A stretch of 64,000 nt of DNA from Pseudomonadota bacterium (GTDB lineage: Bacteria > Campylobacterota > Campylobacteria > Campylobacterales > Sulfurimonadaceae), in the NCBI GenBank assembly GCA_043797085.1, contig JAZDQA010000007.1, positions 32,001 through 96,000 of the forward strand. Direction: 5' to 3'. Below the pieces are notes generated by a model. That model was not told where the DNA came from. It did not search any database and was given only the letters and a program-made list of their open reading frames with translations. The first letter of the stretch is position 1. Each line of letters begins with the position of its first letter. Shown piece by piece: positions 6,236 through 60,093 of the stretch. The translations under genes were made by a program, and so were the position numbers.

Positions 6236-6310
6236 TCTGCCTCATAATGAGGCAAGCTTTAGTAGCCCAAGCGGCTAGCGTAGCTAAAGGGATTTTATTC
6301 CTTTGGCGTT
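6236..6310 (-). repeat. Intergenic repeat family AB, copy A
   Basis: Its reverse complement aligns with 20681-20754 (AACGCCAAAGGAATAA..AATCCCTTTRGCTACGCT..TGCCTC-loop-GAGGCAGA). Confidence 0.8.
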
Positions 6311-19969: not shown

Positions 19970-20680
19970 ATGAAACAGGGGTATACACAAGTCAAACGTA
20001 TGACACCCGCCATGCGCATTATTCATTGGGTAAATGCGATCTGTATGGTTGGAGCCGTCATCACAGGTCTTTATATCGGACATCCGTACTATCAGACGTT
20101 CATAGCGGATGGTGCGGTCGATAAGTATGTTATGGCGTGGAACCGTTATGGACATTTTATTATCGCGATTATTTTTGACGTTACATCGGTCATCATCGCG
20201 TATTTGTATTTTTTCAGCCGATTTGAAAAGCCGTATAAAAAGCTTATTCCGAATGGGAAAAATATTACCGAATTTAAAGCGGTATTGGTCAATCTCTTAA
20301 CGTTAAATCGTAAAAAAGAGTTTGATTCCTCCCATGCGGACAGTTTCAATACCGTTTATTTTACGATTTTTCATATACTTTTGATATGGATGCTTTTTAC
20401 AGGGCTTCAATTGTATGTGCATGGATTGGCGTCTGGAATCAGTTCTATTGGAGCATGGTGGCCGTGGATGCTTCATCTTGTGACAGACTGGACAATTCCT
20501 ATTACAGGCGGAAGTTTGATGGATGTTCGTATGGCTCACCATCTTACCATGTGGTTGATCGTATGCTGGGTCGTGTTTCATATATATTACCAAGTGTGGA
20601 GAACCATTTTCTGGAAAGAGGCGGATATCGCCATTGTTATCGGCGGATCTAAGTTTGTTAAAGACGATACACTAGATTAG
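19970..20680 (+). CDS. hydC: Hydrogenase b-type cytochrome subunit
   Basis: Four transmembrane segments with heme His ligands (RIIHW, YGHF, AHHL, FHIY). Confidence 0.92.
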   Translation: MKQGYTQVKRMTPAMRIIHWVNAICMVGAVITGLYIGHPYYQTFIADGAVDKYVMAWNRYGHFIIAIIFDVTSVIIAYLYFFSRFEKPYKKLIPNGKNITEFKAVLVNLLTLNRKKEFDSSHADSFNTVYFTIFHILLIWMLFTGLQLYVHGLASGISSIGAWWPWMLHLVTDWTIPITGGSLMDVRMAHHLTMWLIVCWVVFHIYYQVWRTIFWKEADIAIVIGGSKFVKDDTLD

Positions 20681-20754
20681 AACGCCAAAGGAATAATACC
20701 CAAGGGGGCACGCCGAATCCCTTTGGCTACGCTTGCCTGCCTCTTCGAGGCAGA
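20681..20754 (+). repeat. Intergenic repeat family AB, copy B, carrying a 19-nt insert (20697-20715)
   Basis: Homologous to the reverse complement of 6236-6310. Confidence 0.8.
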
Positions 20755-20842
20755 ATATTCTATGACGAAGATTAGCTTTTTTATAATCCTCCGGTGGGAG
20801 AGCTATAAAAGAACTATGTATTTTAGTTAACAAAGGGCAATT

Positions 20843-22765
20843 ATGGCATTTACGTTAGAGGTTCTTACCTCTTTTTCTCAACCTACGATTAAAAATTATT
20901 TGATTGCGATTATCCGTACATTCGGGATTAAAGCCGTTGTTCATCAACAAAAAACAAAAATTATTTGTGCTTTTGATAGTAATGATGAAAAACTCCAAGC
21001 GTGTCTGGAAGCGATCGGTACCAATCTTCCTGCATCGTGTTTCATGAGTAAAAGTGAGTTTTACGACATCGAGGGAGAACCCCAAACGGTTCCCGATTTC
21101 GAGGTAGAATATCCGGTTGCTTTGGGATTGTGTCCTGCTTGTCAAAAAGAGATGTTTGACCCTTCCTCAAAGCGGTACTATTACCCCTTTACTCACTGTA
21201 CCCATTGCGGGGGGCAATACGCTTTTTTCGATCATTATCCTTACGAGCGACGTAATACCTCCTTTTCCTATCTGAAACCGTGTGCTACGTGTGAGCGCGA
21301 ATCCGTCAGTTTTGGACGACGAGAAAAACAGGTATTAAACTCCTGTCACGAGTGCGGTATTCCAGTAAAACTGACCCATAAAGGCAATGAACGCTACGCC
21401 AACGATGCAGGAAGTTTTCGCACGATGTTTGAAGTTGCGGCGAAAGCATTACGCGACGGTAAAACACTTTTGATGAAAACGACGATGGGGTATCGGCTCT
21501 TTTATCGTGCGGATAAACTGGAACAAGGTTCGGTTTTAATGCTGACCAATGCGATGAAAATCACAGAGTATTGTTCTCTCATCCATGATGAATTTAATGC
21601 ACTGCTGAGTATCGAGCGTCCGATTTTACACGTGGCACTCAAAGATGAAACCCTGCGAAGTACGTTTGGCTCAACCATCGATGTCAAATATCCTGATGAG
21701 GGATTTTCGATTTTACTGGGGAAAGAGTTGACACTTTTAGGACTTGATTTCATCGTCTATAAGGCATTGGAAGCACCGTGTAATGCGGATTTTTTGATGG
21801 ACTTTGATTTAAACATCCAGTCGCAAAGCGATATGCGTCTTTTTATCAACAAAGAGGTGAAGTTTATCGCTTCGGGTGAGCGTGTTTCCTTTCCTGCACG
21901 TCTCCCATTTGGTACCGATACCCTTAGTATTGCCAATGGATTGGTAGGCATTAAAGATGAAAAAGGGATGCTGTTTGATCAGATGGAACGTTTTTCTTCG
22001 GCTTCCACGCTCAAAGTCAATCAGCTCGAAACCGAAATCCCTACCGTCCAATCCGCTAATTTTCACACGATGGCGGAAGATGAAGCGTCGTTTATGTCAG
22101 TCATTGCCGAGCATAACAAATTTGGAACCAAAATCGTCGGAGCTTATTTTGAAGGGGAACCGTCGTTTTTGTATTATGATGGGAAAAAAGTGATTCGAGT
22201 CGTCCCTCCTAAACCTTTTAGCGGTGTTGATCTGAGAGAAAAAATAGGGTCACTACGTGAGGGATCAAATCGGCTTATGGAAAATATCGAAAAGAAATTT
22301 CCTGAAATCTTTGAGGTTTTGTTAGTATTAGAAAAGAGCAATGCGACCCTTTTTGAAGCGACGGCGATGATTTTGGGACTGAAAGAAAAAAGCTATGAAG
22401 GGGTAATGAAAGAAGCGCTGAAGTTTATCGGTAAAGGGGGACTGCAAATCGATACCAAAGTGCATGACAACCGATTTAACCATGTTGCCTTTTTATCCAG
22501 TATCATCAGCTATAAAATAGCGGGTGTCGATTCAGTCTATTTGAGTTATTCTATCTTCGAATCATTTGGGGATTATTTCAGCGAACTTCTCACAGAGATT
22601 AGAGGGAAAACCAAGGCAACCGATATTGTTCTTTGCGGATCGTATTTCGCGGGACAATCGCTCTTTAGCCGTCTACAGAGAAATTTGAAGGCAACCCCTG
22701 TGCTGATGAATATGAATTACCCCATTGGGAAGGAAAACTGCGTTGTTGGTGGAGTCTACTTATAA
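20843..22765 (+). CDS. hydE: HydE, HypF-like hydrogenase accessory protein of Campylobacterota
   Basis: HypF-like Zn fingers (CPAC..RYYYPFTHCTHCG, CATC, CHEC) with a degenerate remainder; lies between hydC and hypF. Confidence 0.7.
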   Translation: MAFTLEVLTSFSQPTIKNYLIAIIRTFGIKAVVHQQKTKIICAFDSNDEKLQACLEAIGTNLPASCFMSKSEFYDIEGEPQTVPDFEVEYPVALGLCPACQKEMFDPSSKRYYYPFTHCTHCGGQYAFFDHYPYERRNTSFSYLKPCATCERESVSFGRREKQVLNSCHECGIPVKLTHKGNERYANDAGSFRTMFEVAAKALRDGKTLLMKTTMGYRLFYRADKLEQGSVLMLTNAMKITEYCSLIHDEFNALLSIERPILHVALKDETLRSTFGSTIDVKYPDEGFSILLGKELTLLGLDFIVYKALEAPCNADFLMDFDLNIQSQSDMRLFINKEVKFIASGERVSFPARLPFGTDTLSIANGLVGIKDEKGMLFDQMERFSSASTLKVNQLETEIPTVQSANFHTMAEDEASFMSVIAEHNKFGTKIVGAYFEGEPSFLYYDGKKVIRVVPPKPFSGVDLREKIGSLREGSNRLMENIEKKFPEIFEVLLVLEKSNATLFEATAMILGLKEKSYEGVMKEALKFIGKGGLQIDTKVHDNRFNHVAFLSSIISYKIAGVDSVYLSYSIFESFGDYFSELLTEIRGKTKATDIVLCGSYFAGQSLFSRLQRNLKATPVLMNMNYPIGKENCVVGGVYL

Positions 22766-22771
22766 ACTAAC

Positions 22772-22863
22772 GTTACACACTTTCCGAGCAAAGCCCGCAA
22801 AGTGGCAGGGACAAATGTCCCTACAACCCCCTAAAGCTACCCGTATCTTTCGAATACGGGAGA
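22772..22863 (+). repeat. 92-bp structured intergenic repeat, family CD, copy C
   Basis: 80/92 identical to the reverse complement of 51741-51832; three hairpins. Confidence 0.9.
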
Positions 22864-22873
22864 AGAACTATTT

Positions 22874-25135
22874 ATGATCAGTTATAAAATTACGATCAAA
22901 GGGTTAGTACAGGGGGTCGGATTCCGTCCATTTGTCTACCGCGAAGCCAAGACTCACGGAATGATGGGTTTTATCATCAACACTGCCGATGGAGTCGTTA
23001 TCGAAGCTGAAGGAGTAAACTCTGATGCTTTTATTAACGCTTTACGAGAAAATCTTCCTAAACATGCCCGTATTGATTCGATGGAAATAGTTGAGCATGA
23101 ACCGTGCGGTTATACCGATTTTGAAATACGTGAGAGTACTCTTGGCGTGGGTAGTGTTGCTATTCCTCTCGACACTGCTTTGTGTTCCGCCTGTCAAGCG
23201 GAAATGGATGACCCCTCTAATCGCCGTTACCGCTATCCGTTTATCAACTGCACCGATTGCGGTCCTCGTTACACTATCCTTCAAATCCCCCCGTATGACC
23301 GCGTTCGTACGTCGATGAAACAGTTTACGATGTGTGATGCCTGTCATGCTGAATATACCGATCCGACCTCGCGCCGTTATCATGCCGAACCTATCAGCTG
23401 TCCTGATTGCGGACCGACGTTGACGTTTTTGGACAATAAAGGGTCAGAGATAGAGGGTGATCCCATCGCGTTAGCGGTTGAGATGCTCAAAGAGGGGAAA
23501 ATTATCGCACTCAAAGGACTTGGGGGATTTCATCTGATGTGTGATGCGACTTCCGATACCGCCGTGAGTGAATTACGACTGCGCAAACATCGTAAAGCCA
23601 AGCCACTGGCCGTGATGTTTGGCTCACTTGAACAACTCCAAGAGTATGCTGTGATGGATGAAGTGGAGAAAGCGCATATCATGGGAGCTATCAAACCAAT
23701 CGTAATCGTCCATGCTAAAAACGATACAAATCTCTCGGAACACATAGCCCCTTTGATTGACCGAATCGGAGTATTTCTCCCCTATACCCCGCTTCATCGA
23801 TTGCTGTTTGAGGCTATCGATTTTCCGTTGATTGCCACCAGTGCCAACATCAGTGATGAGCCCATCATCGTCAGAACCGATGAGATTGTCCACAGACTGG
23901 GAAATGTTGTGGACGGGATTTTAAGTCATAATCGCACCATCGTCAATGCGCTCGATGACTCCGTAATCCAAATCGCGCAGGGACGTGTTGTGATGTTACG
24001 GATGGGGCGTGGATTTGCACCGCATACGCTTCTTTTGACAAACTCCATTGCGAAAAATATTTTAGCCCTCGGAGCACACCAAAAAAGTGCAATAGCTCTC
24101 GGAGTCAAAAAAAATATGGTGTTGAGCGGGCATATCGGTGATTTGGGAAGCATTGAAGCCGATGGCTATTTTGAAAAGACGATTCAAACGTTTAAACGGT
24201 TTTACGAGTGTGAACCAACACTTATGATTACCGATTTGCATCCGCATTACTCCTCAACACGCTATGCCCAAGTGCAAAAAAAAGAGCATTACGGAATCCA
24301 ACACCACTATGCGCATATACTTGCTTGTATGGGAGAATATGGTTTGGATGAAAAAGTGCTGAGCTTTGCGTTTGACGGTACGGGATACGGTGACGATGGG
24401 AAACTTTGGGGGGGAGAGGTGATGATCGCCGATACGCACGGGTTTGAACGGATCGGATTTTTAAAACCGTTTGCCCTTTTAGGCGGTGATAAAGCGATCA
24501 AAGAACCTCGCAGAATTGCGTTGTCGCTGTTGTTTGAGAGTTATAGCCTCGATGAAGTATTGGTATTGAAGTCACCCGTAACCGAAGCTTTTTTAGAGTA
24601 TGAAATCCGTCAGCTTCACCACATGTGGACTAAAAAACTTAATTCTCCGTTGAGCAGTTCGATGGGGCGGCTTTTTGATGCGGTTGCCTCATTGGGGGGA
24701 TTTATCCAAACTCTCGATTACGAAGGGCAGGGGGGGATGATTATGGAGCGTTTTGCGGATGACGCGATTACTCTACCGTTTGATTTTACTGTGACGGATA
24801 GGGAAATCGATATATCTCTTATGGTGAAACAAATTGTTGCATTAAGTACACAAAGCGATTCAAAACGGCTCATAGCCAGCCGATTTATCGCGACGGTTGA
24901 GGCGATGATGCAGTATTTTGTTAACATCTATCCTGAACTGCCAATTGTTATCGGTGGCGGGGTTTTTCAAAATCGTGCACTTATGTCTCGACTTTACCGA
25001 GATTTTGGTGAGGGAGCGTTTTATGCCCAACAGCAAACGCCGATCAATGATGGATCGATTGCATTGGGACAGCTCTATTATGCTGTGCATAATGAGTATT
25101 CTAAAGATGGATCCCCGGGTCAAGCCCGAGGATGA
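22874..25135 (+). CDS. hypF: Carbamoyltransferase HypF
   Basis: GLVQGVGFRPF, two Zn fingers, KGLGGFHL, DLHP, QHHYAH, FDGTGYG and NDGSIALGQ. Confidence 0.96.
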   Translation: MISYKITIKGLVQGVGFRPFVYREAKTHGMMGFIINTADGVVIEAEGVNSDAFINALRENLPKHARIDSMEIVEHEPCGYTDFEIRESTLGVGSVAIPLDTALCSACQAEMDDPSNRRYRYPFINCTDCGPRYTILQIPPYDRVRTSMKQFTMCDACHAEYTDPTSRRYHAEPISCPDCGPTLTFLDNKGSEIEGDPIALAVEMLKEGKIIALKGLGGFHLMCDATSDTAVSELRLRKHRKAKPLAVMFGSLEQLQEYAVMDEVEKAHIMGAIKPIVIVHAKNDTNLSEHIAPLIDRIGVFLPYTPLHRLLFEAIDFPLIATSANISDEPIIVRTDEIVHRLGNVVDGILSHNRTIVNALDDSVIQIAQGRVVMLRMGRGFAPHTLLLTNSIAKNILALGAHQKSAIALGVKKNMVLSGHIGDLGSIEADGYFEKTIQTFKRFYECEPTLMITDLHPHYSSTRYAQVQKKEHYGIQHHYAHILACMGEYGLDEKVLSFAFDGTGYGDDGKLWGGEVMIADTHGFERIGFLKPFALLGGDKAIKEPRRIALSLLFESYSLDEVLVLKSPVTEAFLEYEIRQLHHMWTKKLNSPLSSSMGRLFDAVASLGGFIQTLDYEGQGGMIMERFADDAITLPFDFTVTDREIDISLMVKQIVALSTQSDSKRLIASRFIATVEAMMQYFVNIYPELPIVIGGGVFQNRALMSRLYRDFGEGAFYAQQQTPINDGSIALGQLYYAVHNEYSKDGSPGQARG

Positions 25136-25190
25136 CGAGCTATTGTCATTCCCGCGTAGGCGGGCGAAGTGCCCGTTAGGGTGAATCCAG
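25108..25190. repeat. REP-like doublet (GTCAT..ATCCA family) overlapping the hypF stop; right unit carries a 19-nt insert
   Basis: TGGATCCCCGGGTCAAGCCCGAGGATGAC followed by GTCATTCCCGCGTAGGCGGG[19 nt]AATCCAG. Confidence 0.85.
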
Positions 25191-25215
25191 CTAAATTTTA
25201 CACTAAAGGAAAAAA

Positions 25216-25773
25216 ATGAACGCTAAAGTAGCATTGATAGGATCAGGAAACGCATTTTTTATGGATGAGGGGATTGGGCTTTATGCTGGTAAGTATCTCA
25301 AAGAAAATTTTACGTTTGCACCTGAATTGGACATTATCGATGGTGGGACGCTTGGGTTTGGGTTGATGCCTTTGTTGCAAGAGTATGAAGTTGTGATTAT
25401 TGCCAATACCAGTTCTGATGATGACAAAATAATCGGAAGTATTGATGTCTTAAGCGGTGATGAACTCATCGCCAATCAAGGGATCAAAAAAACGGCAAAT
25501 GAAGTCGAGATTACCGAAATGCTCCAAATTTGCTCGATGGCAAACCATTGTGCGCAAACCACGATGGTGAGTATCGTCCCTGAAGATATTATCAGCGTTC
25601 ATGTTGGGGTAACACCTGCTTTGCGCGAAAAATGGCTAGAATATATTGATGTTATTGTGGATGAACTGGCAAAATGCGGGATCAGCAGTACACAAAAAGA
25701 GTCTGTGATGGGATTGGATGAGATACTTGAACAGTTTGCAAACCCCAGTATCGAACACGGCAAAGGGTTTTAA
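25216..25773 (+). CDS. Hydrogenase maturation protease paralogue (degenerate metal ligands)
   Basis: GSGN..DEGIG and IDGGTLG are present, but IIANT and TANEV stand where Asp and His are expected. Confidence 0.82.
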   Translation: MNAKVALIGSGNAFFMDEGIGLYAGKYLKENFTFAPELDIIDGGTLGFGLMPLLQEYEVVIIANTSSDDDKIIGSIDVLSGDELIANQGIKKTANEVEITEMLQICSMANHCAQTTMVSIVPEDIISVHVGVTPALREKWLEYIDVIVDELAKCGISSTQKESVMGLDEILEQFANPSIEHGKGF

Positions 25774-26336: not shown

Positions 26337-28557
26337 TCGGCAATGGTCGGTTAAACAAATATCCTTGATAGGCAGTACATCCATTATTTTCGAGAAATTC
26401 TCGTTGAGCTTGTGTCTCTACTCCTTCGGCAATGACATTCATTTCCAGACCTCGACCCATGGTAATGATGGTTTTGGTGATCATCTCGTCATTTTTTTCT
26501 CCGGGGATATTGTCTACAAACGATTTATCGATTTTGAGCTGAGCGAGAGGAAGTTGTGCCAGATAGGAGAGGGAAGAAAATCCTGTCCCGAAATCGTCCA
26601 TAGAAAAGGTAATCCCTAACTGTTTAAGCGCATTCATCTTTTGGATGGTATCCTCGATGTTTTCGATAACGATACTTTCTGTGAGCTCGAGTTTTAACCG
26701 CATCGGATTGATCCCGCTGGCTTTGATAATACGTTCTACTTGGGTGACATAATCTGATTGCCGAAATTCTTTCCCACTGACATTGACGGCAATTTGAAGC
26801 GTACTCATGCGGGGATCTTTTTCCCATTTTTTGAGCTGAGAGCACGCAGCTTCCATTACCCAGTTGCCGATGGATAAGATTAATCCGGACTCTTCTGCAA
26901 GAGGGATAAAATCATCGGGCGCTACGAGTCCGCGCCGTGGATGCTGCCATCGTATCAGTGCTTCTGCTCCTACGACATGATTTTTTTCATCAACTTGAGA
27001 TTGGTAAAAGAGACGAAATTGCTCGTGTTTGATGGCGTGCTGAAGTTCTATCTCTAATGCACTGCGAAGGTTGAGTGCCTCTTGCATGGCAGGGTCAAAA
27101 AAGCGCAGGGTGTTGCGTCCTGCATCTTTGGCTTTGTAGAGTGCGAGGTCTGCATGTTTGAGGAGATCCTCGACCGTATCATCTTTACTAAGTAAGCTTA
27201 TGCCGATGCTAACCTTGCAATTGTATTCTACGTCATGAAGATTGAACGGTTTTTCCATTGTTTCACGCAGTTTTTCTCCTAGCTGCTGAGCCATTGTTGC
27301 AGCTTCTGTGGATTCTGTGCTTAGAGCATCCAGCAAGACAACGAACTCATCTCCTCCCTGACGACCTACGGTATCGGATTGACGGACACTGGCGCGCAGG
27401 CGTTGAGCTATATCCACGAGTAACAAATCACCCACCGTATGACCGCGCGTGTCGTTCAGTGTCTTAAAATGATCGATATCGACAAACAAAACAGCTCCAT
27501 ACGTTTCGTTTCGACCCGAAGCAGCGATGGTTTGAGCCAGTCTGTCTTGTATCAAGCGACGGTTTGGCAATCCGGTGAGAGGATCATAGTAGGCGAGACG
27601 GTGGATGGCGGCTTCGGCTTCTTTGTCATCGGTGAGGTCTGAAAAATTAGCGACATAATGAGTCGCACCTAATCCGTCAATATTTACTGCGGTAATGGTT
27701 AAGAGTTGGGCATAAAACTCCCCATTTTTACGCTTATTCCACATCTCGCCCTGCCAGTGTCCTTGTTCGTTCAATACTGACAATAAATTCGTATAAAATT
27801 CTTTTGTATGCCGTTCTGACTTTAGCATCGTGACAGCGTGTCCAATTGCTTCTTGCGCAGGATAGCCTGTTATGCGGGTGAAGGCTTGGTTGACTCGCAA
27901 TATAATCCCATGGGCATCGGTAATGATGATTCCGTTTTGAGATTCGAAGGCAATGGCGGCAATGTTGAGATCACTTTGAGTTTTTTTACGCTGAGTGATA
28001 TCGCTCAGTACGAGACGTAATATCAATCCGCCCTCACTGTTTTTTGAAAGTGACGTGTCCAGTTGCGCCCAAAATTGTGTACCGTCCCCCTTTATCATTC
28101 GTACCTCATACGACTGAGCTTGATGGGTTGAAAGAAATTTCTTATGGTGCAGATAATAGTTGTCTTGATCTTCACTGAAAATGAATTTGTTGAGCGGTTG
28201 GTGGATAAGAGCACTTTTTGGGATACCAAGCAAGATGGTGGCGGTGAGATTGGATTGGAGAATTTCTCCTTTTTCATTCAGCGTAAAATATCCTATCGGT
28301 GCCATTTCATAGAGGTCAAAATAGCGTTCTTTCGCCGCGTTAAGTTCAGTTTTACCTTGGCGTAATTCCTCGTTTTGCATCTCAAGCTCGATTTGATGAA
28401 CGTGTAACTCTTGGATCAGATAGCGTACTTTTTCAGGTGAAAAATCTTCGTCAAAAAGTGGAGTATCTTCATGAGAAAGGAGTTCGGCTTTTTCGCGTAA
28501 AATTTGGGCAAGGACCTTTGCATTTTTGGACCCACTTTTGATCTTTTTAGGGCTCAT
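26284..28557 (-). CDS. Coiled-coil + PAS-PAS-GGDEF-EAL c-di-GMP enzyme
   Basis: ELHVHQIELEMQNEEL, YDPLTGLPNR, GGDEF, EALIRW and DDFGTG. Confidence 0.93.
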   Translation of the reverse strand: MSPKKIKSGSKNAKVLAQILREKAELLSHEDTPLFDEDFSPEKVRYLIQELHVHQIELEMQNEELRQGKTELNAAKERYFDLYEMAPIGYFTLNEKGEILQSNLTATILLGIPKSALIHQPLNKFIFSEDQDNYYLHHKKFLSTHQAQSYEVRMIKGDGTQFWAQLDTSLSKNSEGGLILRLVLSDITQRKKTQSDLNIAAIAFESQNGIIITDAHGIILRVNQAFTRITGYPAQEAIGHAVTMLKSERHTKEFYTNLLSVLNEQGHWQGEMWNKRKNGEFYAQLLTITAVNIDGLGATHYVANFSDLTDDKEAEAAIHRLAYYDPLTGLPNRRLIQDRLAQTIAASGRNETYGAVLFVDIDHFKTLNDTRGHTVGDLLLVDIAQRLRASVRQSDTVGRQGGDEFVVLLDALSTESTEAATMAQQLGEKLRETMEKPFNLHDVEYNCKVSIGISLLSKDDTVEDLLKHADLALYKAKDAGRNTLRFFDPAMQEALNLRSALEIELQHAIKHEQFRLFYQSQVDEKNHVVGAEALIRWQHPRRGLVAPDDFIPLAEESGLILSIGNWVMEAACSQLKKWEKDPRMSTLQIAVNVSGKEFRQSDYVTQVERIIKASGINPMRLKLELTESIVIENIEDTIQKMNALKQLGITFSMDDFGTGFSSLSYLAQLPLAQLKIDKSFVDNIPGEKNDEMITKTIITMGRGLEMNVIAEGVETQAQREFLENNGCTAYQGYLFNRPLPITEFETFLVQDQNEQDI

Positions 28558-31148
28558 TGAAAATTTCCTCCTAAGGGCTCATTTAACCGTTCTGTTGTCG
28601 TGATCGCATACATCTCTCCCTTGTCATTCACCAACGCCGTTGCCGTAACCCACACTTCTTTGATTGTGCCGTTCTTGCAAAGCCGTTGTGCGAGATACGG
28701 TTTCAAAATCTCGTTACGGCTGAGCTGATAGATTTTTTCTAACTCTTTTTCCCGTACCTCTTCAGGTATTCGAGTGCGTACATTCATCATCAACGCTTCG
28801 GCTTCACTCCATCCATATATTCGTGCGGCACTGCGGTTCCATTGGAGGATATTTCCCTGTAAATCTTGTACGGAGATAGCATCGTATGCATCACGGACAA
28901 TGGTTGCCATATGGCGCAAAGACTCTTGTGCCCTCATGATTTCGGTAATATCGACAAAGGTGATAACTGCACCCTTGACGATGTTTTCAAGGGTTCGGTA
29001 AGGGATGATATGCATCATGTACCACTGACCTGTCGTGCTGTTTACTTTGATCTCTTTGGGGACCAGCGTCTCTAATACGGTTCGTATGTCTGCTTGCAGT
29101 GTGTGATATCCCACGAGAGATGAGGTGATGTGCCCGACGGGCCGCCCTATGTCGCTTGGAATGAGGTTGATGAGAAGAGTTGCCGAGGGGGTATAGCGTA
29201 AAATACAAAGGTCTTGATCCACAAACAGCGTTGCAATACCGGTACCTGAGAGAAGATTATTCATATCATTATTGGCTTGTGACAAAGCAATGACCTTCGT
29301 TTGCAGTTCAGCGTTGACGGTGGAGAGTTCTTCGTTGAGCGATTGCATCTCTTCTTTTGAGGTTTCGAGTTCTTCGTTCGTGGACTGTAACTCTTCATTG
29401 GAGGATTGCAGTTCTTCGTTCACGAGTTGCATCCCCTCCGTGTTATTGGCATGTATTTCACCAACGTTTAACGGGAAGTTCGCATCGCCGTACAAATACA
29501 GCATATCCCCGTTGGCGCTGACAAGTACACCCGTAGGAGTGTGTTGCGGCAGGGTATTTTCGAGATGGTGTGATTTTGATGACACATAAATTCCTTTGTG
29601 TACAGGTGGAATGATGGGAATGACATTATTGATAAATCCTCGTCGTTCATGCTTGAGGTTTTCATTGCATTCATACAGTTTTGATTTTTCATCCAAACTG
29701 GTAAAAAGATTATTAAACTCACCAATCCCCTCAGAAGTTCCTAAAAACAGTACGCCTCTATCATTAAGAGCATAATGGAATAAGGGGATCACTTTTTTTT
29801 GCAGTACAGAGCCCATATAGATGAGCAGGTTTCGGCAGCTGATCAGATCAAGATTGGAAAAGGGGGGGGCTTTGATCACGTCTTGCTCCGAAAAGATGAT
29901 CATATCCCGAATTTTTTTAGCAATACGGTAGTGTCTTCCATCCGGTTCCAGTGTAAAAAACTTCTCAAGCCGTTGCGGGGTGATATCTTCGGCAATGCTG
30001 ATGGGATAGAGACCGGCACGGGCAACTGCAATGGCTCTGGTATCAATATCGGTGGCAAAGATTTGTACACTATACGGGATTTTAAGTTCCTCGATTCGCT
30101 CTTCTAAGAGGATTGCCAAAGAATACGGTTCTTCACCGCTGGAACATCCGCATGACCAAACACGGATGACGCTATCGGCAGATTTCCCCTCGAAGAGTTT
30201 TGGGATGACTTTCTTTTCCAATACTTCAAAAGCTTTGGGATCGCGAAAGAAATTGGTCACCCCAATCAACAAATCACGAAACAAAGCGTCTACTTCAGTG
30301 GGAGTGTTTTGTAGATATTTGACGTAGTCTTCTATTGAATCCAGTTGATAAATGCTCATGCGACGATTAATCCGGCGACCAATGCTGCTGGGTTTGTAGT
30401 GTGAAAAATCATGACCTGTCTGATCACGAAGGAGGAGAAAAATCTTTTTTAGGCTATTTTCGTGTTTGGGGATGAGAGCAGGGATCGGAATATGAGAAAG
30501 AGACCCCCATGTATGAGCGATATAGTCCATAAGTACGCTTGCCATCTCTTCAGGCGGCAACTCATAATCGACCAATCCCGTAGCGATGGCACTGCCGGGC
30601 ATTCCGTCAAACTGGGCAGAATCACAGTCCTGCGCGATCACCATCCCCCCTTCTTTTTTGATGGCTATAACCCCTTGCTTGCCATCACTGCCTGTGCCTG
30701 AGAGGATAATACCGATGGAGTGTTCACGCAAATCCGCAGCTAAAGAACGAAAAAAGAAATCGATGGGAAGACGCTGACCTCGCGGCTCAGACGGGTCTAG
30801 CAGCTGTAACGTCCCGTCCATCAGGGCTATATTATAGTTTGGAGGGATGACATAAATGCAATTTGGTTCGATTATGACACCGTCTTTGGCCTCTAAAACG
30901 TGCATTACGGTATAACGCCCGATGATTTCCGAGAGGATACTTTTATGATCAGGTGAAAGATGTTGTATCAGAACAAAGGCACAATCAGGATGGTTCCCTC
31001 TGGGCATATTAGAAAAAAATGATTCAAACGCGGCTAATCCTCCCGCAGAAGCACCGATTCCGATGACTGGAAAAGAGGGTTTTCTGAGGATTTGTACTGA
31101 GTCTTGCTGCTTACTGCTGTTTGATTTTTTTGTGTTTGTCAAAAACAT
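28554..31148 (-). CDS. CheB methylesterase-CheR methyltransferase fusion with coiled coil and PAS domains
   Basis: GASAGG, QHL and SGTGSDG (CheB); GVTNFFRD, GCSSGEE and CRNLLIY (CheR); NEELQS repeats. Confidence 0.92.
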   Translation of the reverse strand: MFLTNTKKSNSSKQQDSVQILRKPSFPVIGIGASAGGLAAFESFFSNMPRGNHPDCAFVLIQHLSPDHKSILSEIIGRYTVMHVLEAKDGVIIEPNCIYVIPPNYNIALMDGTLQLLDPSEPRGQRLPIDFFFRSLAADLREHSIGIILSGTGSDGKQGVIAIKKEGGMVIAQDCDSAQFDGMPGSAIATGLVDYELPPEEMASVLMDYIAHTWGSLSHIPIPALIPKHENSLKKIFLLLRDQTGHDFSHYKPSSIGRRINRRMSIYQLDSIEDYVKYLQNTPTEVDALFRDLLIGVTNFFRDPKAFEVLEKKVIPKLFEGKSADSVIRVWSCGCSSGEEPYSLAILLEERIEELKIPYSVQIFATDIDTRAIAVARAGLYPISIAEDITPQRLEKFFTLEPDGRHYRIAKKIRDMIIFSEQDVIKAPPFSNLDLISCRNLLIYMGSVLQKKVIPLFHYALNDRGVLFLGTSEGIGEFNNLFTSLDEKSKLYECNENLKHERRGFINNVIPIIPPVHKGIYVSSKSHHLENTLPQHTPTGVLVSANGDMLYLYGDANFPLNVGEIHANNTEGMQLVNEELQSSNEELQSTNEELETSKEEMQSLNEELSTVNAELQTKVIALSQANNDMNNLLSGTGIATLFVDQDLCILRYTPSATLLINLIPSDIGRPVGHITSSLVGYHTLQADIRTVLETLVPKEIKVNSTTGQWYMMHIIPYRTLENIVKGAVITFVDITEIMRAQESLRHMATIVRDAYDAISVQDLQGNILQWNRSAARIYGWSEAEALMMNVRTRIPEEVREKELEKIYQLSRNEILKPYLAQRLCKNGTIKEVWVTATALVNDKGEMYAITTTERLNEPLGGNFQ

Positions 31149-32045: not shown

Positions 32046-32687
32046 ATGGAACTGGGTTTAATCGTAATTTTTTGGTACGGTATCTTACACGCTTTTGGTC
32101 CCGACCATTTGACCGCTATTGCTGATTTCTCAATCGGTAAAAATGCGAAAAAAACCTTTATGACGGTCAGTGCGTTTGCTGTAGGTCACGGGTTGATGCT
32201 TTTTATGTTTGCAAAGTTGCTCCAGTATTTTTCCATTCCCGAAACGGTAACCGCGTATGGTGATATTATTGCTTCCAGTGTTATTTTATCCATAGGGATT
32301 TATCTACTGTATATGGTTTACAGTAATAAAATTCATCTGCACTCCCATATCCATGATAACAAAAAACACGTACATATATGGTTTGGAAACGAACATGAAC
32401 ATCAATCAAACGGCGGGAGCAGTTCAGCTTTTAGCATTGGTGTTTTGATGGGGATTGGCGGGGTGCGCGGGATGTTGGTGACGCTGGGTATGATGCAGGG
32501 GCAAAGTATTGATTTTACAATGATTTTGGCATTTATTTTAGGTGTTATGGTGGTATTTATGGCGTTTGGATGGGTGATATTATGGATCAATAAAGATATA
32601 CTCACCAATATACAAAACGTACGCCGTGCATTTGCTACGGTGGGTGCTGTTTCCGTTTTAGTCGGCGGAAATATGCTTTTGGCGTAA
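32046..32687 (+). CDS. Nickel/cobalt permease (NiCoT/UreH-like)
   Basis: HAFGPDH signature, GHG, His-rich loop and about six transmembrane segments; first gene of the hyp operon. Confidence 0.85.
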   Translation: MELGLIVIFWYGILHAFGPDHLTAIADFSIGKNAKKTFMTVSAFAVGHGLMLFMFAKLLQYFSIPETVTAYGDIIASSVILSIGIYLLYMVYSNKIHLHSHIHDNKKHVHIWFGNEHEHQSNGGSSSAFSIGVLMGIGGVRGMLVTLGMMQGQSIDFTMILAFILGVMVVFMAFGWVILWINKDILTNIQNVRRAFATVGAVSVLVGGNMLLA

Positions 32688-32695
32688 ATTCCTCT

Positions 32696-32779
32696 GTCAT
32701 TCCGTACTTCATGTGCCCTTTAGGGTAGATACGGAATCCATAAGTATTAGATGGATACCGTGTCGTAGCACGGTATGAC
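32696..32779. repeat. REP-like doublet (GTCAT..ATCCA family); left unit carries an 18-19-nt insert
   Basis: GTCATTCCGTACTT[insert]GATACGGAATCCA paired with inverted TGGATACCGTGTCGTAGCACGGTATGAC. Confidence 0.85.
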
Positions 32780-32819
32780 GAAAAATGGAAAATAAAATAA
32801 CAAGTAGAGGATTTTAAAA

Positions 32820-33632
32820 ATGTGCAAAGACTGCGGATGTTCAATTACGGATCATGATCACCACAACCATGACGACCACCATCACGATCACGACGGTCAT
32901 CACCATGATCACGGAGATCATCATTCTCATACCCATCAAGCGGCGCATGAAACATTGCACCATAACCCACAGCTCAATGATAAAAAAACCATTGATGTTA
33001 TCAAGAAAATTTTAGATAAAAACGATCAGGAAGCACACCATAACCGTGAGCATTTTAATGAGCATGGAGTGTTGGCGATTAATCTAATGAGCTCTCCGGG
33101 AAGCGGAAAAACAGCGTTGCTAGAAGCAATGGCTGGAATTTCTCCATTTAAATTTGCCGTCATCGAAGGAGATTTGGAGACATCACGTGATGCAGATCGT
33201 CTGATTGCAAAAGGAATCAATGCCGTGCAGATTCAAACAGGAAGTGCCTGCCATCTGGATGCGTTTATGGTTCATAAAGGGCTTCATGATTTGCCGATTG
33301 CTGATTTGGATGTCTGTTTCATCGAAAATGTGGGGAATCTTGTCTGTCCGGCGAGCTATGATGTGGGGAGCCATCTCAATATCGTTTTGGTTTCCATCCC
33401 TGAGGGTGAAGACAAAATCGCCAAATATCCGGTGATGTTTCGAACAGCCGATTTGATTTTGATCACAAAAACCGATTTGCTCCCGTATTTCAAATACGAC
33501 ATGGAACGTGAGAAATCCGAAGCCCGTAAAATCAAACCGAATGTCGATATTTTAGAGGTCAATATCAACGATGAAGCCTCCGTTAAACGAGTGATCGAGT
33601 GGATTGAATTTAAACGAAAGATGAGAGCGTAA
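32820..33632 (+). CDS. hypB: Hydrogenase nickel incorporation GTPase HypB
   Basis: MCKDCGC, His-rich tract, SPGSGKT, CHLD, ENVGNLVCP and TKTD. Confidence 0.96.
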   Translation: MCKDCGCSITDHDHHNHDDHHHDHDGHHHDHGDHHSHTHQAAHETLHHNPQLNDKKTIDVIKKILDKNDQEAHHNREHFNEHGVLAINLMSSPGSGKTALLEAMAGISPFKFAVIEGDLETSRDADRLIAKGINAVQIQTGSACHLDAFMVHKGLHDLPIADLDVCFIENVGNLVCPASYDVGSHLNIVLVSIPEGEDKIAKYPVMFRTADLILITKTDLLPYFKYDMEREKSEARKIKPNVDILEVNINDEASVKRVIEWIEFKRKMRA

Positions 33633-40579: not shown

Positions 40580-42010
40580 ATGGATCATCAGGATTTAATA
40601 AAAAAGTTACAAGCACGCGAAGGTCTTTCACGACGTGATGCCCTAAAAATGATGGCACTCTCACCCGTTACCGCATCCGTATTGGCAGGGTCTGCTGTTC
40701 CAACGACATTATCGGCTTCTTCTTCGAATGCGGTGGGAAAAATCGTTATCGTCGGGGGTGGTTCAGGTGCGTTGATGGCTCTTTCTCGTCTTCGCCGTGC
40801 TTTATCAAAACCTGATATTACGGTTATCGCGCCCAATGAAAAACATGTCTATCAACCGGGACAAATCTTCGTAGCAGCGGGTGAATATGCTCCGGAAGAT
40901 ATTATTTTTGATAACAAAGGTTATATTGGAGAGGATGTAACGTGGATCAAAGACGAAGCCGCAACGTTCGATCCCGATAACAACAAGCTCACAACCAAAG
41001 GCGGTACGGTCGTTGATTATGATTATCTCATTGTAGCAACGGGTGTACAGTACCATTATGAGCAAATTGCAGGACTGACTTCGGATATGATCGGTAAAAA
41101 CGGTATTTCCAGCGTCTATCTCAGTGATCTGGCAAAGGGAACGGCAGAGGGGGGAACCATTACCCATGAATGGTTTAAAGCGCTTCATGAAGCAGCAAAA
41201 ACCTCTAAACCCCGCGTTATTTGTACTCAACCCTCAACCCCGCTCAAATGTGGCGGAGCTCCTCAAAAAATTCTTTATCTCAGTGATGATTTCCTCAAAC
41301 GTGATAAATTAACGGCAGACTTTACTTTTGCTACGGCAGGAGAAAAACTTTTTGGTCTTCCTGAAATTGATGCGGCACTGCATAAAGTCCAAGAAGGCTA
41401 CGGTAATATCACCAATAAATTTGCTCATGAACTCATCGCCATCGATGCCGAGAAAAAACTCGCAACGTTCCATCACAAATACGAAGTGAAAGGGGAGTAC
41501 GACAAAGAATTCGAAGAGTATGAGATGATTGAAAAAGAAGAAGATGTCACGATGGAATACGATTTTATCCATATTACTCCTCCGACTTATGCGGTCGATG
41601 CAGTTGCTAACTCATTGCTTGGATGGCAAAAAGGGACGGCAAAAGGGTGGCTTGAAGTAGATCGTGAGACATTACAACATCGTCGTTACAAAAATGTCTT
41701 CGGGATTGGAGATGTGTGCGGTATTCCCATCGGTAAAACAGGGGGAAGTGCACGTCATCAAGGACCGATTGTCGTGGGAAATCTGATTTCAGTGATGGAG
41801 AAAAAAGAACCGACATTAAAATTTGATGGTTATACTGTATGCCCTCTCAAAGTTTCTTACGGTGAAATAATCATGGCAGAGTTCAACTACGACGGGCTTG
41901 CTCCCTCTTTTCCTCTCGATCCGGCAAAACCAAGATGGGTATGGTGGGCATTTGATCTCTATATGCTTCAACCGATGTATCGTTACTTGATGCTGAACGG
42001 AATTATGTAA
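40580..42010 (+). CDS. Tat-signal type II-like sulfide:quinone oxidoreductase (SqrB-like), copy 1
   Basis: SRRDALK, VGGGSG, KCGGAPQKI and DGYTVCP. Start revised to ATG 40580, after AAGGAG. Confidence 0.82.
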   Translation: MDHQDLIKKLQAREGLSRRDALKMMALSPVTASVLAGSAVPTTLSASSSNAVGKIVIVGGGSGALMALSRLRRALSKPDITVIAPNEKHVYQPGQIFVAAGEYAPEDIIFDNKGYIGEDVTWIKDEAATFDPDNNKLTTKGGTVVDYDYLIVATGVQYHYEQIAGLTSDMIGKNGISSVYLSDLAKGTAEGGTITHEWFKALHEAAKTSKPRVICTQPSTPLKCGGAPQKILYLSDDFLKRDKLTADFTFATAGEKLFGLPEIDAALHKVQEGYGNITNKFAHELIAIDAEKKLATFHHKYEVKGEYDKEFEEYEMIEKEEDVTMEYDFIHITPPTYAVDAVANSLLGWQKGTAKGWLEVDRETLQHRRYKNVFGIGDVCGIPIGKTGGSARHQGPIVVGNLISVMEKKEPTLKFDGYTVCPLKVSYGEIIMAEFNYDGLAPSFPLDPAKPRWVWWAFDLYMLQPMYRYLMLNGIM

Positions 42011-42117
42011 AGGTAACATAAATTATTATTTTTTGTAATAAATATGTCATTTTAAGTTAAATAGCATGCTTTATGCAATATCATTGAGAGATTGACTAAA
42101 GTATAAAAACATACGGG

Positions 42118-51740: not shown

Positions 51741-51832
51741 TCTCCCTCATCCGGAAGATGTGGGTAGCTTCAGGGGATTGTAGGGACATTTGTCCCTGCC
51801 ACTTTTTGGGCTTTGCTCGAAAAGTGTCTAAC
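51741..51832 (-). repeat. 92-bp structured intergenic repeat, family CD, copy D
   Basis: Its reverse complement is 80/92 identical to 22772-22863. Confidence 0.9.
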
Positions 51833-51837
51833 ATCAA

Positions 51838-52950
51838 TTAGTAGCTAAATGGATCGTTTTTGATCTCATCATGAGTGATAGGGCGAGCCATCGCTCTCCA
51901 AACGACTACAATATACCCTAATACGACAGGAACGAATAAAGAGACATATCCCATAACTGTTAAGGTGTATCGGCTGCCTGAACTGTTTGCCGTGGTCAAT
52001 GAACTTTGAATATCGACGTACGATGGATAAAAAGGTGCGCTTCCTACTCCCGTAGAAAAAAGAAGGGCAAAAACCATCAATACCGTTCCGGCAGCGGCAC
52101 ACCAGAATCCCGATTTTTTAGCTCTTATTCCTCCGAGAAGAAAAAGTCCCAATCCGATGACAAAAGGGGCTAGAACACTTATAGGATAGGTCATAAAGGT
52201 ATGAAAATAGCGATTCATTTCGATTAACACTCGATTATTTTCTACCATAAGTCCCGGAATGATAAAAATCCATGTAGCATACGCCGCTAAAGCAGCAACC
52301 GTGACGAGCATCTCAATGTGGAGCTTTTTGAGTGTTGAGCGTCTGATTTCATCCTCTTCAACGCTGTTAAGAATATACAACATTCCTAAAATACGTGAGA
52401 GCATCATTACGCTCACTCCTCCCAAAAGATTAAAAGGGATTAGTAATGCTTCAAGACCTCGCGTTGCAACCATCCAGTGTGACAGGTTCGTATCGTCCAC
52501 GATAAATGCTCCCCCTGAAAACATCGTAGAGATAATGACACCGATCAAAAAGGGAGCAAGATAGCCGTTGATACTCAAAAAAGTTTCGTACAAGCGTGAA
52601 CCGTAGACATTCCCTTTTTTAGTTCGGTATTCATACGAAACGGCTTGGATGATATAAGAGAACAATAGCGTCATCCATGCGAAATACGCGCCTCCGAAAC
52701 TCACGGCATAAAAGAGTGGAAACGCCGCGAAAACAGCACCTCCGAAAAGAACAAGGGTCGTAAAGCCAAGTTCCCATTTGCGTCCGAAAACATTGTAAAG
52801 CAAAGTTTTATCCGCTTCATTTTTGGCAATGGAGGGGATTAGAGCCTGACCTCCTTGAACAAACAGCATCATCGCTAAAAATCCGCCCAAGAGGGAGACA
52901 ATCCCCCACCAGTAATTTTGAAGCCATAGCAGTTCCCACGTCTCAAACAT
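51838..52950 (-). CDS. cydB: Cytochrome bd oxidase subunit II
   Basis: KWELGFTTLVLFGGAVFAAFP and SLTTANSSGS..TL; polytopic membrane protein. Start revised to ATG 52950. Confidence 0.93.
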   Translation of the reverse strand: MFETWELLWLQNYWWGIVSLLGGFLAMMLFVQGGQALIPSIAKNEADKTLLYNVFGRKWELGFTTLVLFGGAVFAAFPLFYAVSFGGAYFAWMTLLFSYIIQAVSYEYRTKKGNVYGSRLYETFLSINGYLAPFLIGVIISTMFSGGAFIVDDTNLSHWMVATRGLEALLIPFNLLGGVSVMMLSRILGMLYILNSVEEDEIRRSTLKKLHIEMLVTVAALAAYATWIFIIPGLMVENNRVLIEMNRYFHTFMTYPISVLAPFVIGLGLFLLGGIRAKKSGFWCAAAGTVLMVFALLFSTGVGSAPFYPSYVDIQSSLTTANSSGSRYTLTVMGYVSLFVPVVLGYIVVVWRAMARPITHDEIKNDPFSY

Positions 52951-58412: not shown

Positions 58413-58658
58413 TTATTTATGAGAGATGGTTTTTTTTGAAGAGAAGAGTCTTTTGCCTAGTTGGAGTATCATTCGTAAGATTGCGATGATACTGTATACA
58501 ATGGCTGTATAAACGAGAGGGTGAAAATAGTTACCCTTCTCCATCATAGTGGCAAAACGAAGCAATGGATTGTTTAGAAGATCGGGATGCATCAGGAATG
58601 CTAAAATTGGCAGTAAAATACCAAAAATAGCAATCTCCCGAAGCAAAGTTTTGTTCAT
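58413..58658 (-). CDS. Small two-TM membrane protein
   Basis: Two hydrophobic segments with MHPD and HPL; starts 1 bp after the upstream stop. Confidence 0.7.
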   Translation of the reverse strand: MNKTLLREIAIFGILLPILAFLMHPDLLNNPLLRFATMMEKGNYFHPLVYTAIVYSIIAILRMILQLGKRLFSSKKTISHK

Positions 58659-58659
58659 T

Positions 58660-60093
58660 CTACATTAAACCGCGCATCATCAAATGCCAGTACATCGGTT
58701 TGAGCATATAGAGGTCAAATGCCCACCAAATCCAGCGTTCTTCTTCAACAGCAAGAGGAAACGACGGTGCAGCACCGAGGTAATTGAACTCAGCTAAGAT
58801 AATTTTGCCGTATTGAGTTTTCAACGGACATACCGTGTAGCCGTCAAATTTTTCAGTAAGGGCTTTTTTCTCCATTTGAGAAATCAGATTGGCAACCATA
58901 ATCGGTCCGTGATGGCGAGCACTTCCTCCAGTTTTACCCAGTGGGATACCGCACACATCACCGATTCCGAAGACATTAGGGTAGCGATTGTGTTGAAGTG
59001 TGTCTTGATCCACTTCCAGCCACCCTTTTGCTGACCCTTTTTGCCATGCAAGGGCTGAATTAAAGACAGCATCCGGTGCAGACATCGGAGGAACAATATG
59101 GATAAAATCGTATTCCATCGGTACACGCTCAACGGTGGTGATGGTTTCATACTCTTCTAAATCTTCGTCGTAAGCCCCTTTGGTCTCTACTTTGGTTTCA
59201 AACGTAGCGATTTTTTTCTCCCCGTCGATAGCAACGAGATTGTGTTTAAATTTATTGGTGATATTTCCATAACGCGGTTGAACCACTTCATTGAGTGCTT
59301 TGTTGACAGCAGGAACACCGAAAAGTTTATCGCCGTTAAGGGCAAAGGTGAAATCAGCCGTTAGTCCATCTTGTTTGAGAAAGTCATCACTGAGATAGAG
59401 AATCTTTTGGGGAGCACCACCACATTTGATCGGAGTTGCAGGCTGAGTACAGATGACGCGAGATTTCCCTTTTTTCGCCGCTTCTTTAACGTCATTAAAC
59501 CACTGCCATGTAATAGAACCGCCCGCAGCTGTCCCCTTTTCCAAATCATTGAGATAAACGCTAGAAATACCATTTTTACCGATCATATCGATGGTAAGAC
59601 CTTCGATTTTTTCATAATGGTAGACTAATCCAGTGGCTACAACGAGATAGTCATAAGAGACTTTTTCCCCTTTTCGAGTAGTAAGGGTATTGTTGTCGGG
59701 ATCAAATGTAGCGACTTCGTCTTTGATCCATTTGACATCATCGGGAATCAAATCGAGATTGCTTCCCATAATGTCTTCAGGTGCGTATTCACCCGCAGCG
59801 ACAAACACTTGTCCCGGTTGGTAAATATGACCTTCGTTTGGAGTGATGATCGTGATGTCTGGGTTGGAGAGTGCTTTGCGCAAACGTGCCATCGCCATAA
59901 TACCGCCGGCACCACCGCCAACGATAACAATTTTACCTTTGGCATCTGAAGCCATAGCATTCGTACCATTACTGCTGCCAGCAGAGGCAAGAACACCTGC
60001 CGCGATAGGGGAAAGACCCATAAAGCGTAGCGCTTCACGACGGGTCATACCGGATTTGATTTCATTGAGTGCGTCAAGTTCGAGTTTAGACAT
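58660..60093 (-). CDS. Tat-signal type II-like sulfide:quinone oxidoreductase (SqrB-like), copy 2
   Basis: TRREALR, VGGGAGG, KCGGAPQKI and DGYTVCP; close paralogue of 40580-42010. Confidence 0.82.
   Translation of the reverse strand: MSKLELDALNEIKSGMTRREALRFMGLSPIAAGVLASAGSSNGTNAMASDAKGKIVIVGGGAGGIMAMARLRKALSNPDITIITPNEGHIYQPGQVFVAAGEYAPEDIMGSNLDLIPDDVKWIKDEVATFDPDNNTLTTRKGEKVSYDYLVVATGLVYHYEKIEGLTIDMIGKNGISSVYLNDLEKGTAAGGSITWQWFNDVKEAAKKGKSRVICTQPATPIKCGGAPQKILYLSDDFLKQDGLTADFTFALNGDKLFGVPAVNKALNEVVQPRYGNITNKFKHNLVAIDGEKKIATFETKVETKGAYDEDLEEYETITTVERVPMEYDFIHIVPPMSAPDAVFNSALAWQKGSAKGWLEVDQDTLQHNRYPNVFGIGDVCGIPLGKTGGSARHHGPIMVANLISQMEKKALTEKFDGYTVCPLKTQYGKIILAEFNYLGAAPSFPLAVEEERWIWWAFDLYMLKPMYWHLMMRGLM

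Follow-up and report, generated by a model that had tools for sequence, protein, structure and literature searches.

The analysed window, a stretch of 64,000 nucleotides from a Campylobacterota draft genome (G000; 2.4 Mb, 95.9% complete), carries three short inserts located among hydrogenase-maturation genes, each inside a repeat. Records that share its repeats (L030) suggest that the genome belongs to Sulfuricurvum. At the first of them, site B, a Ni-hydrogenase cytochrome b gene and a hypF-like gene flank host repeat B (20681..20753, minus strand), a member of the H5 family in which a GCGTAG...GGCGTT frame surrounds a variable hairpin. The loop of this repeat contains a 19-nt module (20697..20715, minus strand) made of a CGGC leader and GTGCCC-CCTT-GGGTA. 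A paralogous H5 repeat, copy A (6237..6310, plus strand), gives the empty form of the host when read on the minus strand, its empty site lying between 6294 and 6295. Relative to this empty site the module can be placed in a single way, with no mismatches, and the clean 19-nt insertion without target duplication proposed in a first-pass annotation was recovered at exactly 20697-20715. A contig from a groundwater RNA library spans the filled site with one difference and no gap and may share its source with the window; read mapping, made on contigs only, which drop rare variants, listed no joint skipping the insert, a result that carries no weight either way. Host repeat B also lacks 17 nt between 20737 and 20738 that are present in three orthologues. 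This loss is situated 22 nt from the insert, has no other instance in G000 or in the searched loci, and may be coupled to the insertion.

The second insert is a 19-nt module with a CGAA leader and a GGGTG end (25165..25183, plus strand) in the 3′ stem arm of an NTS/CGTC-1 palindrome (host family H1; 25145..25190, plus strand), which is broken at GCGGG^AATCC and fits the NTS consensus in the available text of PMC11893778. An empty CGTC-type palindrome of family H2 is its partner (25108..25137, minus strand). The third is an 18-nt module with a CAT leader (32710..32727, plus strand), inserted at ACTT^GAT into the loop of an H2 palindrome (32696..32740, plus strand) whose CGTC-type partner is again empty (32752..32780, minus strand). 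Both of the REP palindromes that had been said to carry matching inserts thus do so, except that the third insert is one base shorter than proposed, since the T at 32709 belongs to the host. The two hosts do not form one family, as had been supposed: they represent different CGTC-type subfamilies, filled in the 3′ stem arm in one case and in the loop in the other. A sixth repeat family is present as a 99-nt pair (22765..22863, with an inverted copy at 51741-51839); it is empty in the window and module-filled in three congener loci (L360, L426, L428). This pair has a third copy elsewhere on contig C7 and a very high summed depth in run X3. No match to Rfam was found in the window, which further contains repeats with a 21-nt period (29326-29438) inside an 864-aa ORF (28554-31148) and an inverted pair of paralogous genes that are ~75% alike (40931-42024 and 58646-59742).

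Copy number, host repeats and empty sites

The pattern GTGCCC-N3-4-GGGTR occurs far above chance, with three matches in the window, where 100 shuffles gave a mean of 0.05, and 17 in G000 against 1, 1, 0 and 0 in four order-4 Markov simulations. Relaxing the loop to 1-7 nt raised the count in G000 to 30, some of these being chance matches in genes; a hand-curated list, which includes one-mismatch copies with known leaders, comprises 29 copies. None of the 29 lies more than 30 nt inside any ORF of at least 90 aa, their neighbours are ordinary housekeeping and metabolic genes, and their leading-strand bias is 18:11 (p=0.26).

Five repeat families of G000 hold both empty and filled copies: H1, the NTS/CGTC-1 palindrome (3 filled, 11 empty); H2, the CGTC-type palindromes, filled in the loop; H3, GAGC..TGTCGAA (2 filled, 11 empty); H4 (9 filled, 14 empty); and H5, the host of site B (2 filled). 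Repeats of the NTS/SRM type are targets of Ssn nucleases, for which a consensus is given in PMC11893778, and CGTC-tagged REPs are described in PMC3733652. The likeness to both is a likeness of the hosts, which are targets and not the element itself; no insert of the present type is described in the available text of either source, and GTGCCC has no match in that of PMC3733652. Among congeners, H3 or CGTC repeats stand on both sides of small GIY-YIG genes at 9 of 30 loci, which identifies the hosts as Ssn-type repeats. The genes so bracketed are of two kinds (L822-L827, L829, L831, L834), and these loci are Ssn-like modules whose cognate H3 repeat is unlike NTS. The small GIY-YIG gene of G000 itself has no such flanks, and no host-flanked gene of this type was found in that genome.

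The polarity of the inserts was addressed by comparing the intergenic region of each window site in the 29 best-matching congeners. At site B the host repeat is kept in four of them (L155, L156, L160, L165) and is empty in all four, so the insert is derived, and the empty-site orthologues sought for it exist; the other 25 carry different repeats or none. No congener has the same host at the other two sites (1 and 7 loci being unresolved), and polarity there rests on paralogues. At the third site two congeners (L218, L220) have a different, filled host. Orthologues of 20680-20843, 25080-25216 and 32687-32820 hold different repeat families or extra genes in the same gaps; the intergenic gaps at the three window sites are hot spots of repeat turnover. 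Loose host-anchored patterns returned mostly noise. Other small inserts were met in the same kinds of site: an unrelated 36-nt micro-element with a C start and a TTGTTT end, several copies of which occupy the same H3 loop site (L193, G283/G288), and further short inserts of different sequences in the NTS 3′ arm from metagenomes (L496, L503, L506, L555, L576, L580, L604).

Ends and targets of the module

Boundaries were called without assuming the ends, using 194 distinct motif matches in G000 and congener loci. An empty match within five mismatches was available for 102 of them and within three for 77. In 67 of the 77, the best placements included a right end directly after GGGTR; the remaining 10, mostly one-base shifts from host mismatches, were left out. 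The insert starts with C in 41 of 41 unambiguous cases and in 67 of 67 compatible placements. Lengths for the 67 are 17 nt (12 inserts), 18 (35), 19 (5), 20 (10) and 21 (3), with one each of 30 and 32 nt. The left flanking base is T in 35, G in 18, A in 10 and C in 4 placements, the right one T in 23, G in 22, A in 20 and C in 2; no base is shared at either end in 41 placements, and one left base in 16. The result is always a precise addition with the same two ends, with neither target duplication nor target loss. A 1-nt target duplication behind the A/G end was ruled out, both ends occurring with either flank. The unit is 5′-C-(2 to about 22 nt)-GTGCCC-loop(2-7)-GGGTR-3′. Of the consensus N4-GTGCCC-N4-GGGTR put forward from the window, the GTGCCC/GGGTR core stands, while the two N4 elements do not: the unit always begins with C, the leader measures 3-5 nt in short forms and reaches about 22 nt in long ones, and the loop spans 2-7 nt. 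Short forms have one hairpin and long forms add a second. Terminal inverted repeats, a feature of MITEs and SMRs, are absent, the ends being C... and ...GGGTR.

Leaders track targets: 3-nt leaders are found in loops, CRAA and CATT at GG^AA in 3′ arms, and the long two-hairpin form at GA^TGAC. The idea of the leader as a guide pairing with its target yielded no rule on inspection. One loop is entered at two offsets (CT^TGA and CTT^GA), one palindrome carries two inserts (L424), and one unit is situated inside the loop of another (L570). These cases establish that independent events took place; since the sites are related and many of the filled composites almost identical, such events must be far fewer than copies. 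Targets include loops and 3′ arms of unrelated hairpin repeats, tandem heptamers, genes, and the unit's own loop and ends. The proposed targeting of hairpin DNA therefore describes a strong preference in the present genome and not a rule, given the insertions into heptamers, coding DNA and the unit's own ends.

In the integrated unit, TGCCC and GGGTA form a 5-bp stem with a G.T, and the preceding G is unpaired. The invariant first C complements this unpaired G, so a 6-bp stem arises only once the two ends meet (GGGTA|C), the leader then becoming a second loop. Among seven non-canonical variants in NTS 3′-arm sites, six keep every pair Watson-Crick or G.T, two of these changing both partners (L562, L161). 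No covariation of the first C and its partner G was seen among the variants; one locus (L403) breaks that pair, and several decayed G000 copies break the stem. The folded circle was not stable when calculated with ViennaRNA (+0.9 to +2.7 kcal/mol), the first C gaining only 0-1 kcal/mol.

Distribution across genomes and head-to-tail copies

Matches were found in 59 of 65 congeners, at 0-42 copies each versus 0-5 for the reversed pattern, a few of the matches being conserved coding sites. In a sample of 250 other genomes of the phylum, 57 had matches, at most three each and near background. A GTDB scan gave at least 120 matches, most of those listed being chance; one 17-mer accounts for 19 of the 120 listed, versus ~2.5 expected under equal variants (p ~1e-11). 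We followed up 15 outside genomes picked from the listed matches, with the reversed pattern as a control. An Endozoicomonas MAG had 102 copies against 1 for the control, an Arenicella MAG 15 against 1, a deltaproteobacterium 9 against 1 and a Clostridiales MAG 9 against 5; three of the 15 genomes showed no excess over the control (G321, G324, G335). Contexts outside the genus comprise CGTC loops in Cupriavidus, GTAG-type repeats in Bacillota, heptamer arrays in Sulfurovum and coding DNA. Outside copies have longer 5′ parts and again start with C where an empty site is available. The module family spans Campylobacterota, Gamma- and Betaproteobacteria, Bacillota, Deltaproteobacteria and phage contigs. 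In a metagenome sample of 120 loci of NTS repeats with extra sequence, which were mostly tandem repeats or chance, six carry the module at GCGGG^AATC and one a variant.

Insertion in frame within a coding sequence was also observed. A dipeptide epimerase gene of Sulfurimonas contains a 33-nt member that adds 11 residues and is absent in 11 of 11 orthologues, the four closest lacking exactly 33 nt and seven more distant ones 36. A deltaproteobacterial PurL gene carries an insert of 24 nt relative to nine and of 27 nt relative to one of the 10 orthologues listed, its ends being unresolved.

From the end-pairing stem, head-to-tail copies were predicted before they were searched for; they were then found in viral sequences. 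No tandem copies were found in G000, in five copy-rich genomes or, apart from one chance-like match, in 860 further loci. An exact CAY-type pattern is found in none of the viral contigs. A total of 84 viral stretches, mostly chance, included clear tandem units in six loci of one contig and in four other contigs, the latter as dimers (L896, L913, L917, L921); two more were doubtful. The richest contig is Mu-like, of phage or prophage origin (IMGVR_UViG_3300001567_000294; bases 770-32449 covered), and contains 53 units, all of 18 nt, at 31 places, with 22 GGGTR|C junctions and arrays of up to six. With a search pattern free of the initial C, a C start was recovered in 50 of 50 units at L947 and in three of five elsewhere in the contig, the other two being judged chance. 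Tandem neighbours differ in 15 of 22 cases and are identical in seven. The places show a 27:4 strand bias, the majority are antisense to genes, 20 of the 31 are in open frames, and five have GTA as the left flank. The predicted junction exists, and the mixed-variant arrays are as expected from repeated insertion at the unit's own end or from multimers; slippage with gene conversion is a possible origin as well. Both the portal gene and the transposase gene of this contig are broken across two frames (L947 5150-6686 and 15441-17964), which suggests a decaying prophage or sequencing error.

A possible route of movement and its relatives

No mobilising enzyme was found near the inserts, as the first-pass annotation had noted for the window. 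The check that it suggested, for co-occurrence with HUH/RAYT transposases or reverse transcriptases (RTs), gave no consistent partner. Y1_Tnp has no hit in G000, a 95.9% complete draft, or in the five highest-copy genomes of the genus; it is present in 25 of 66 genomes of the genus (5 of 16 copy-rich versus 9 of 23 copy-poor) and shows no correlation with copy number, and module hosts closely flank none of 30 Y1 loci. Most of these genomes are drafts, which lose IS, so the absence of a mobile gene is weak evidence. No DUF559 was detected, IS110 was found in one of five copy-rich genomes, and IS91 Y2 in none of the five, with controls equally silent. The RT of G000 belongs to a diversity-generating retroelement (L003, G000:C11:90819-94412), in which an RT and a bAvd-like gene lie beside phage tail-type genes in a prophage region; three of five other genomes have an RT, and none was found in G303 or G296. 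On the Mu-like contig (bases 770-32449), no HUH or RT was found among 54 ORFs compared with Pfam or 33 compared with PHROGs. The module itself has no GTAG or CGTC tag at the hairpin foot, no C|T cut pattern and no flanking RAYT gene.

The module is very probably mobile as such and, at 17-21 nt, one of the smallest mobile DNA units seen. Our preferred reading, held with about even confidence, is that of a non-autonomous ultra-small module moved by an end-joined, single-strand cut-and-join route. By folding, one strand would pair its invariant first C with the G opening GTGCCC and stack it on the 5-bp hairpin, and this fold would bring both ends to a single nick in a 6-bp stem with a conserved G.T mismatch. 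A candidate strand-transferase acting in trans, most likely of the HUH/tyrosine type, would swap two phosphodiester bonds, releasing an end-joined single-stranded unit (junction GGGTA|C) to be pasted into exposed single-stranded DNA. Filled composites would also be copied along with their hosts, and much of the copy number may reflect such hitchhiking. This route is favoured by the empty orthologues, fixed C ends, variable flanks, nesting, in-frame insert, predicted junctions, 27:4 strand bias in the Mu-like contig and pair-keeping stem variants, and by the fact that a joined-end circle and strand-specific, duplication-free transfer are established for IS200/IS605 (PMC5027513). It is weakened by the missing enzyme and Y1 correlation, by the lack of a fixed 4-5-nt 5′ target and of a C|T pattern, by the lack of tandem copies in G000, five copy-rich genomes and the 860 further loci, by the unstable folded circle and missing first-C covariation, and by a non-significant 18:11 strand bias at sites that are not independent.

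It is possible, although we would not favour it, that the module had few origins and then spread passively, filled hosts being amplified or gene-converted via short flank homology and arrays growing by slippage or unequal exchange, with no element-specific enzyme or free intermediate. Such a history would account for the correspondence between subtype and target (CAC-type in loops, CRAA/CATT at GG^AA arms, the long type at GA^TGAC), for ~20 near-identical long-type composites in G303, for targets that resemble the junction in the Mu-like contig (GTA on the left) and in Deltaproteobacteria, for the identical tandem neighbours and for the 17-nt loss close to insert B. However, it is at odds with one unit lying between unrelated flanks in five host families, coding DNA and its own loop, with the two offsets in one loop, with identical ends across phyla and with the predominance of differing tandem neighbours. 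That the filled repeats represent the original state, from which the empty ones derive by precise deletion, or that the motif is due to chance, we regard as extremely improbable; none of the three outcomes named as refuting in the first-pass annotation was obtained. Orthologues give polarity at only one of three window sites, the other two having no same-host congener; yet chance is contradicted by the motif frequency, the host tallies of G000 contain more empty than filled copies, and one unit that interrupts five unrelated repeats at host-specific positions, plus a conserved enzyme gene, cannot be an ancestral part of them all. The four empty site B orthologues and the epimerase insert absent in all 11 orthologues contradict it directly.

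Movement through RNA, with a transcribed hairpin excised or circularised as RNA and then reverse-transcribed or reverse-spliced into targets, appears unlikely. The conserved G.T and the tolerated T.G positions would suit G.U pairs, G000 has an RT, and its copies between co-oriented genes are in sense orientation in 15 of 19 cases (15:4) compared with 32:32 for empty targets (p=0.035). But this bias was not replicated in 235 congener loci (23:25 versus 66:67, p=0.87), which weakens the RNA route, and a sense-strand preference was rejected; moreover, copies in the Mu-like contig are mostly antisense to genes, the G000 RT is part of the retroelement, no RT was found in G303 or G296, and Rfam gave no match. 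More doubtful still is capture at Ssn nicks, whereby the hosts are cut by their own GIY-YIG single-strand nucleases and a short hairpin oligonucleotide is pasted in during repair. The H3 and CGTC hosts on both sides of small GIY-YIG genes and the match of H1 to the NTS consensus speak for it, whereas GTAG-type repeats, heptamer arrays and genes carry inserts as well, G000 has no such host-flanked gene, and SsnA, according to the available text of PMC11893778, cuts upstream of NTS and not in the loop or 3′ arm.

Several known elements resemble the module. SDR1-8, the small dispersed repeats reported by Elhai et al. in 2008, are said to be 21-27 nt long, to nest in themselves and to insert into heptamer arrays. 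The module shows both the nesting in itself (L570) and that in tandem heptamers (Sulfurovum arrays). It is shorter, with 62 of 67 inserts at 17-20 nt, three at 21 nt and two at 30-32 nt. In the available texts on SDRs (PMC5861425, PMC4390886, PMC3116915, PMC2884548), these are repeats of Nostocaceae, of which SDR5 inserts into HIP1, and no SDR-like repeat is reported outside Nostocaceae among HIP1-rich genomes. Both are ~20-nt, non-coding and precisely inserted into other repeats, with no known mover; the module differs in occurring in several phyla and phages and in many target types, SDRs not being known outside Nostocaceae, and, as far as the descriptions of SDR1-8 go, in its fixed C...GGGTR ends and head-to-tail arrays. 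Haloquadratum walsbyi has PATEs and terminal-only derivatives of the IS605 type, some as small as 52 bp, as well as SMR-A, which inserts into palindromes of other elements and whose mobilisation is called enigmatic (PMC3119063). Like the module, PATEs and SMRs are transposase-free and, in the available text, cause no target duplication, SMR-A sharing the preference for palindromes. They are larger (52-110 bp or longer versus 17-21 nt), and SMRs have terminal inverted repeats and PATEs palindromes near both ends, whereas in the module a single 5-bp hairpin occupies the 3′ end. IS200/IS605 elements move by 'peel and paste', which needs a fixed 4-5-nt target and includes a joined-end circle (PMC5027513), and TnpA-REP, guided by GTAG, cleaves at C|T or C|A (PMC8266576). 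As described in the available texts, both are precise, duplication-free and strand-specific around an imperfect hairpin, like the module, and the counterpart of the circle junction, joined ends, was observed in its genomic tandem arrays. Unlike them, the module has no fixed 4-5-nt target, GTAG guide, C|T site, or linked or co-occurring Y1 gene.

The first-pass annotation knew of no description of such an element; we found none of the module family, but its kind is in print, as SDRs and the Haloquadratum SMRs and PATEs. Literal motif strings matched no paper, and no description of the family was found in the openly available literature (subscription papers and supplements were outside the scope) or in the available text of bioRxiv 10.64898/2026.10.21.760802. 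Judged by these comparisons, the module, real, sharply bounded and more widespread than was first supposed, is probably a smaller, cross-phylum SDR-like mobile repeat, which departs from each known class in at least one tested feature and yet appears to work like them.

To our knowledge, the movement of 20-nt repeats has lacked an explanation ever since the description of SDRs, and no partner protein of CGTC-type repeats was known before Ssn. The module offers a sharp handle on these questions: each of its ends is defined to the base, its 5′ part is freely variable, and the end-pairing rule predicted tandem arrays. Tentatively, it may exemplify pan-bacterial minimal elements that move as 17-21-nt end-joined single-stranded dumbbells, in which the junction-only 6-bp stem would be the whole recognition signal and the leader free cargo (2 to about 22 nt), an undescribed strand-transferase or repurposed housekeeping enzyme pasting them into whatever single strand is exposed, irrespective of the target sequence. 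If true, the dumbbell route would supply the mechanism that SDRs and other micro-inserts have so far lacked, and would lend itself naturally to inserting short DNA without scars. The module edits proteins, as in the 11 residues of the dipeptide epimerase and the 20 of 31 places in open frames of the Mu-like contig, and it interrupts Ssn target hairpins. It thus supplies proteins with small insertions and is at the same time a parasite of parasites.
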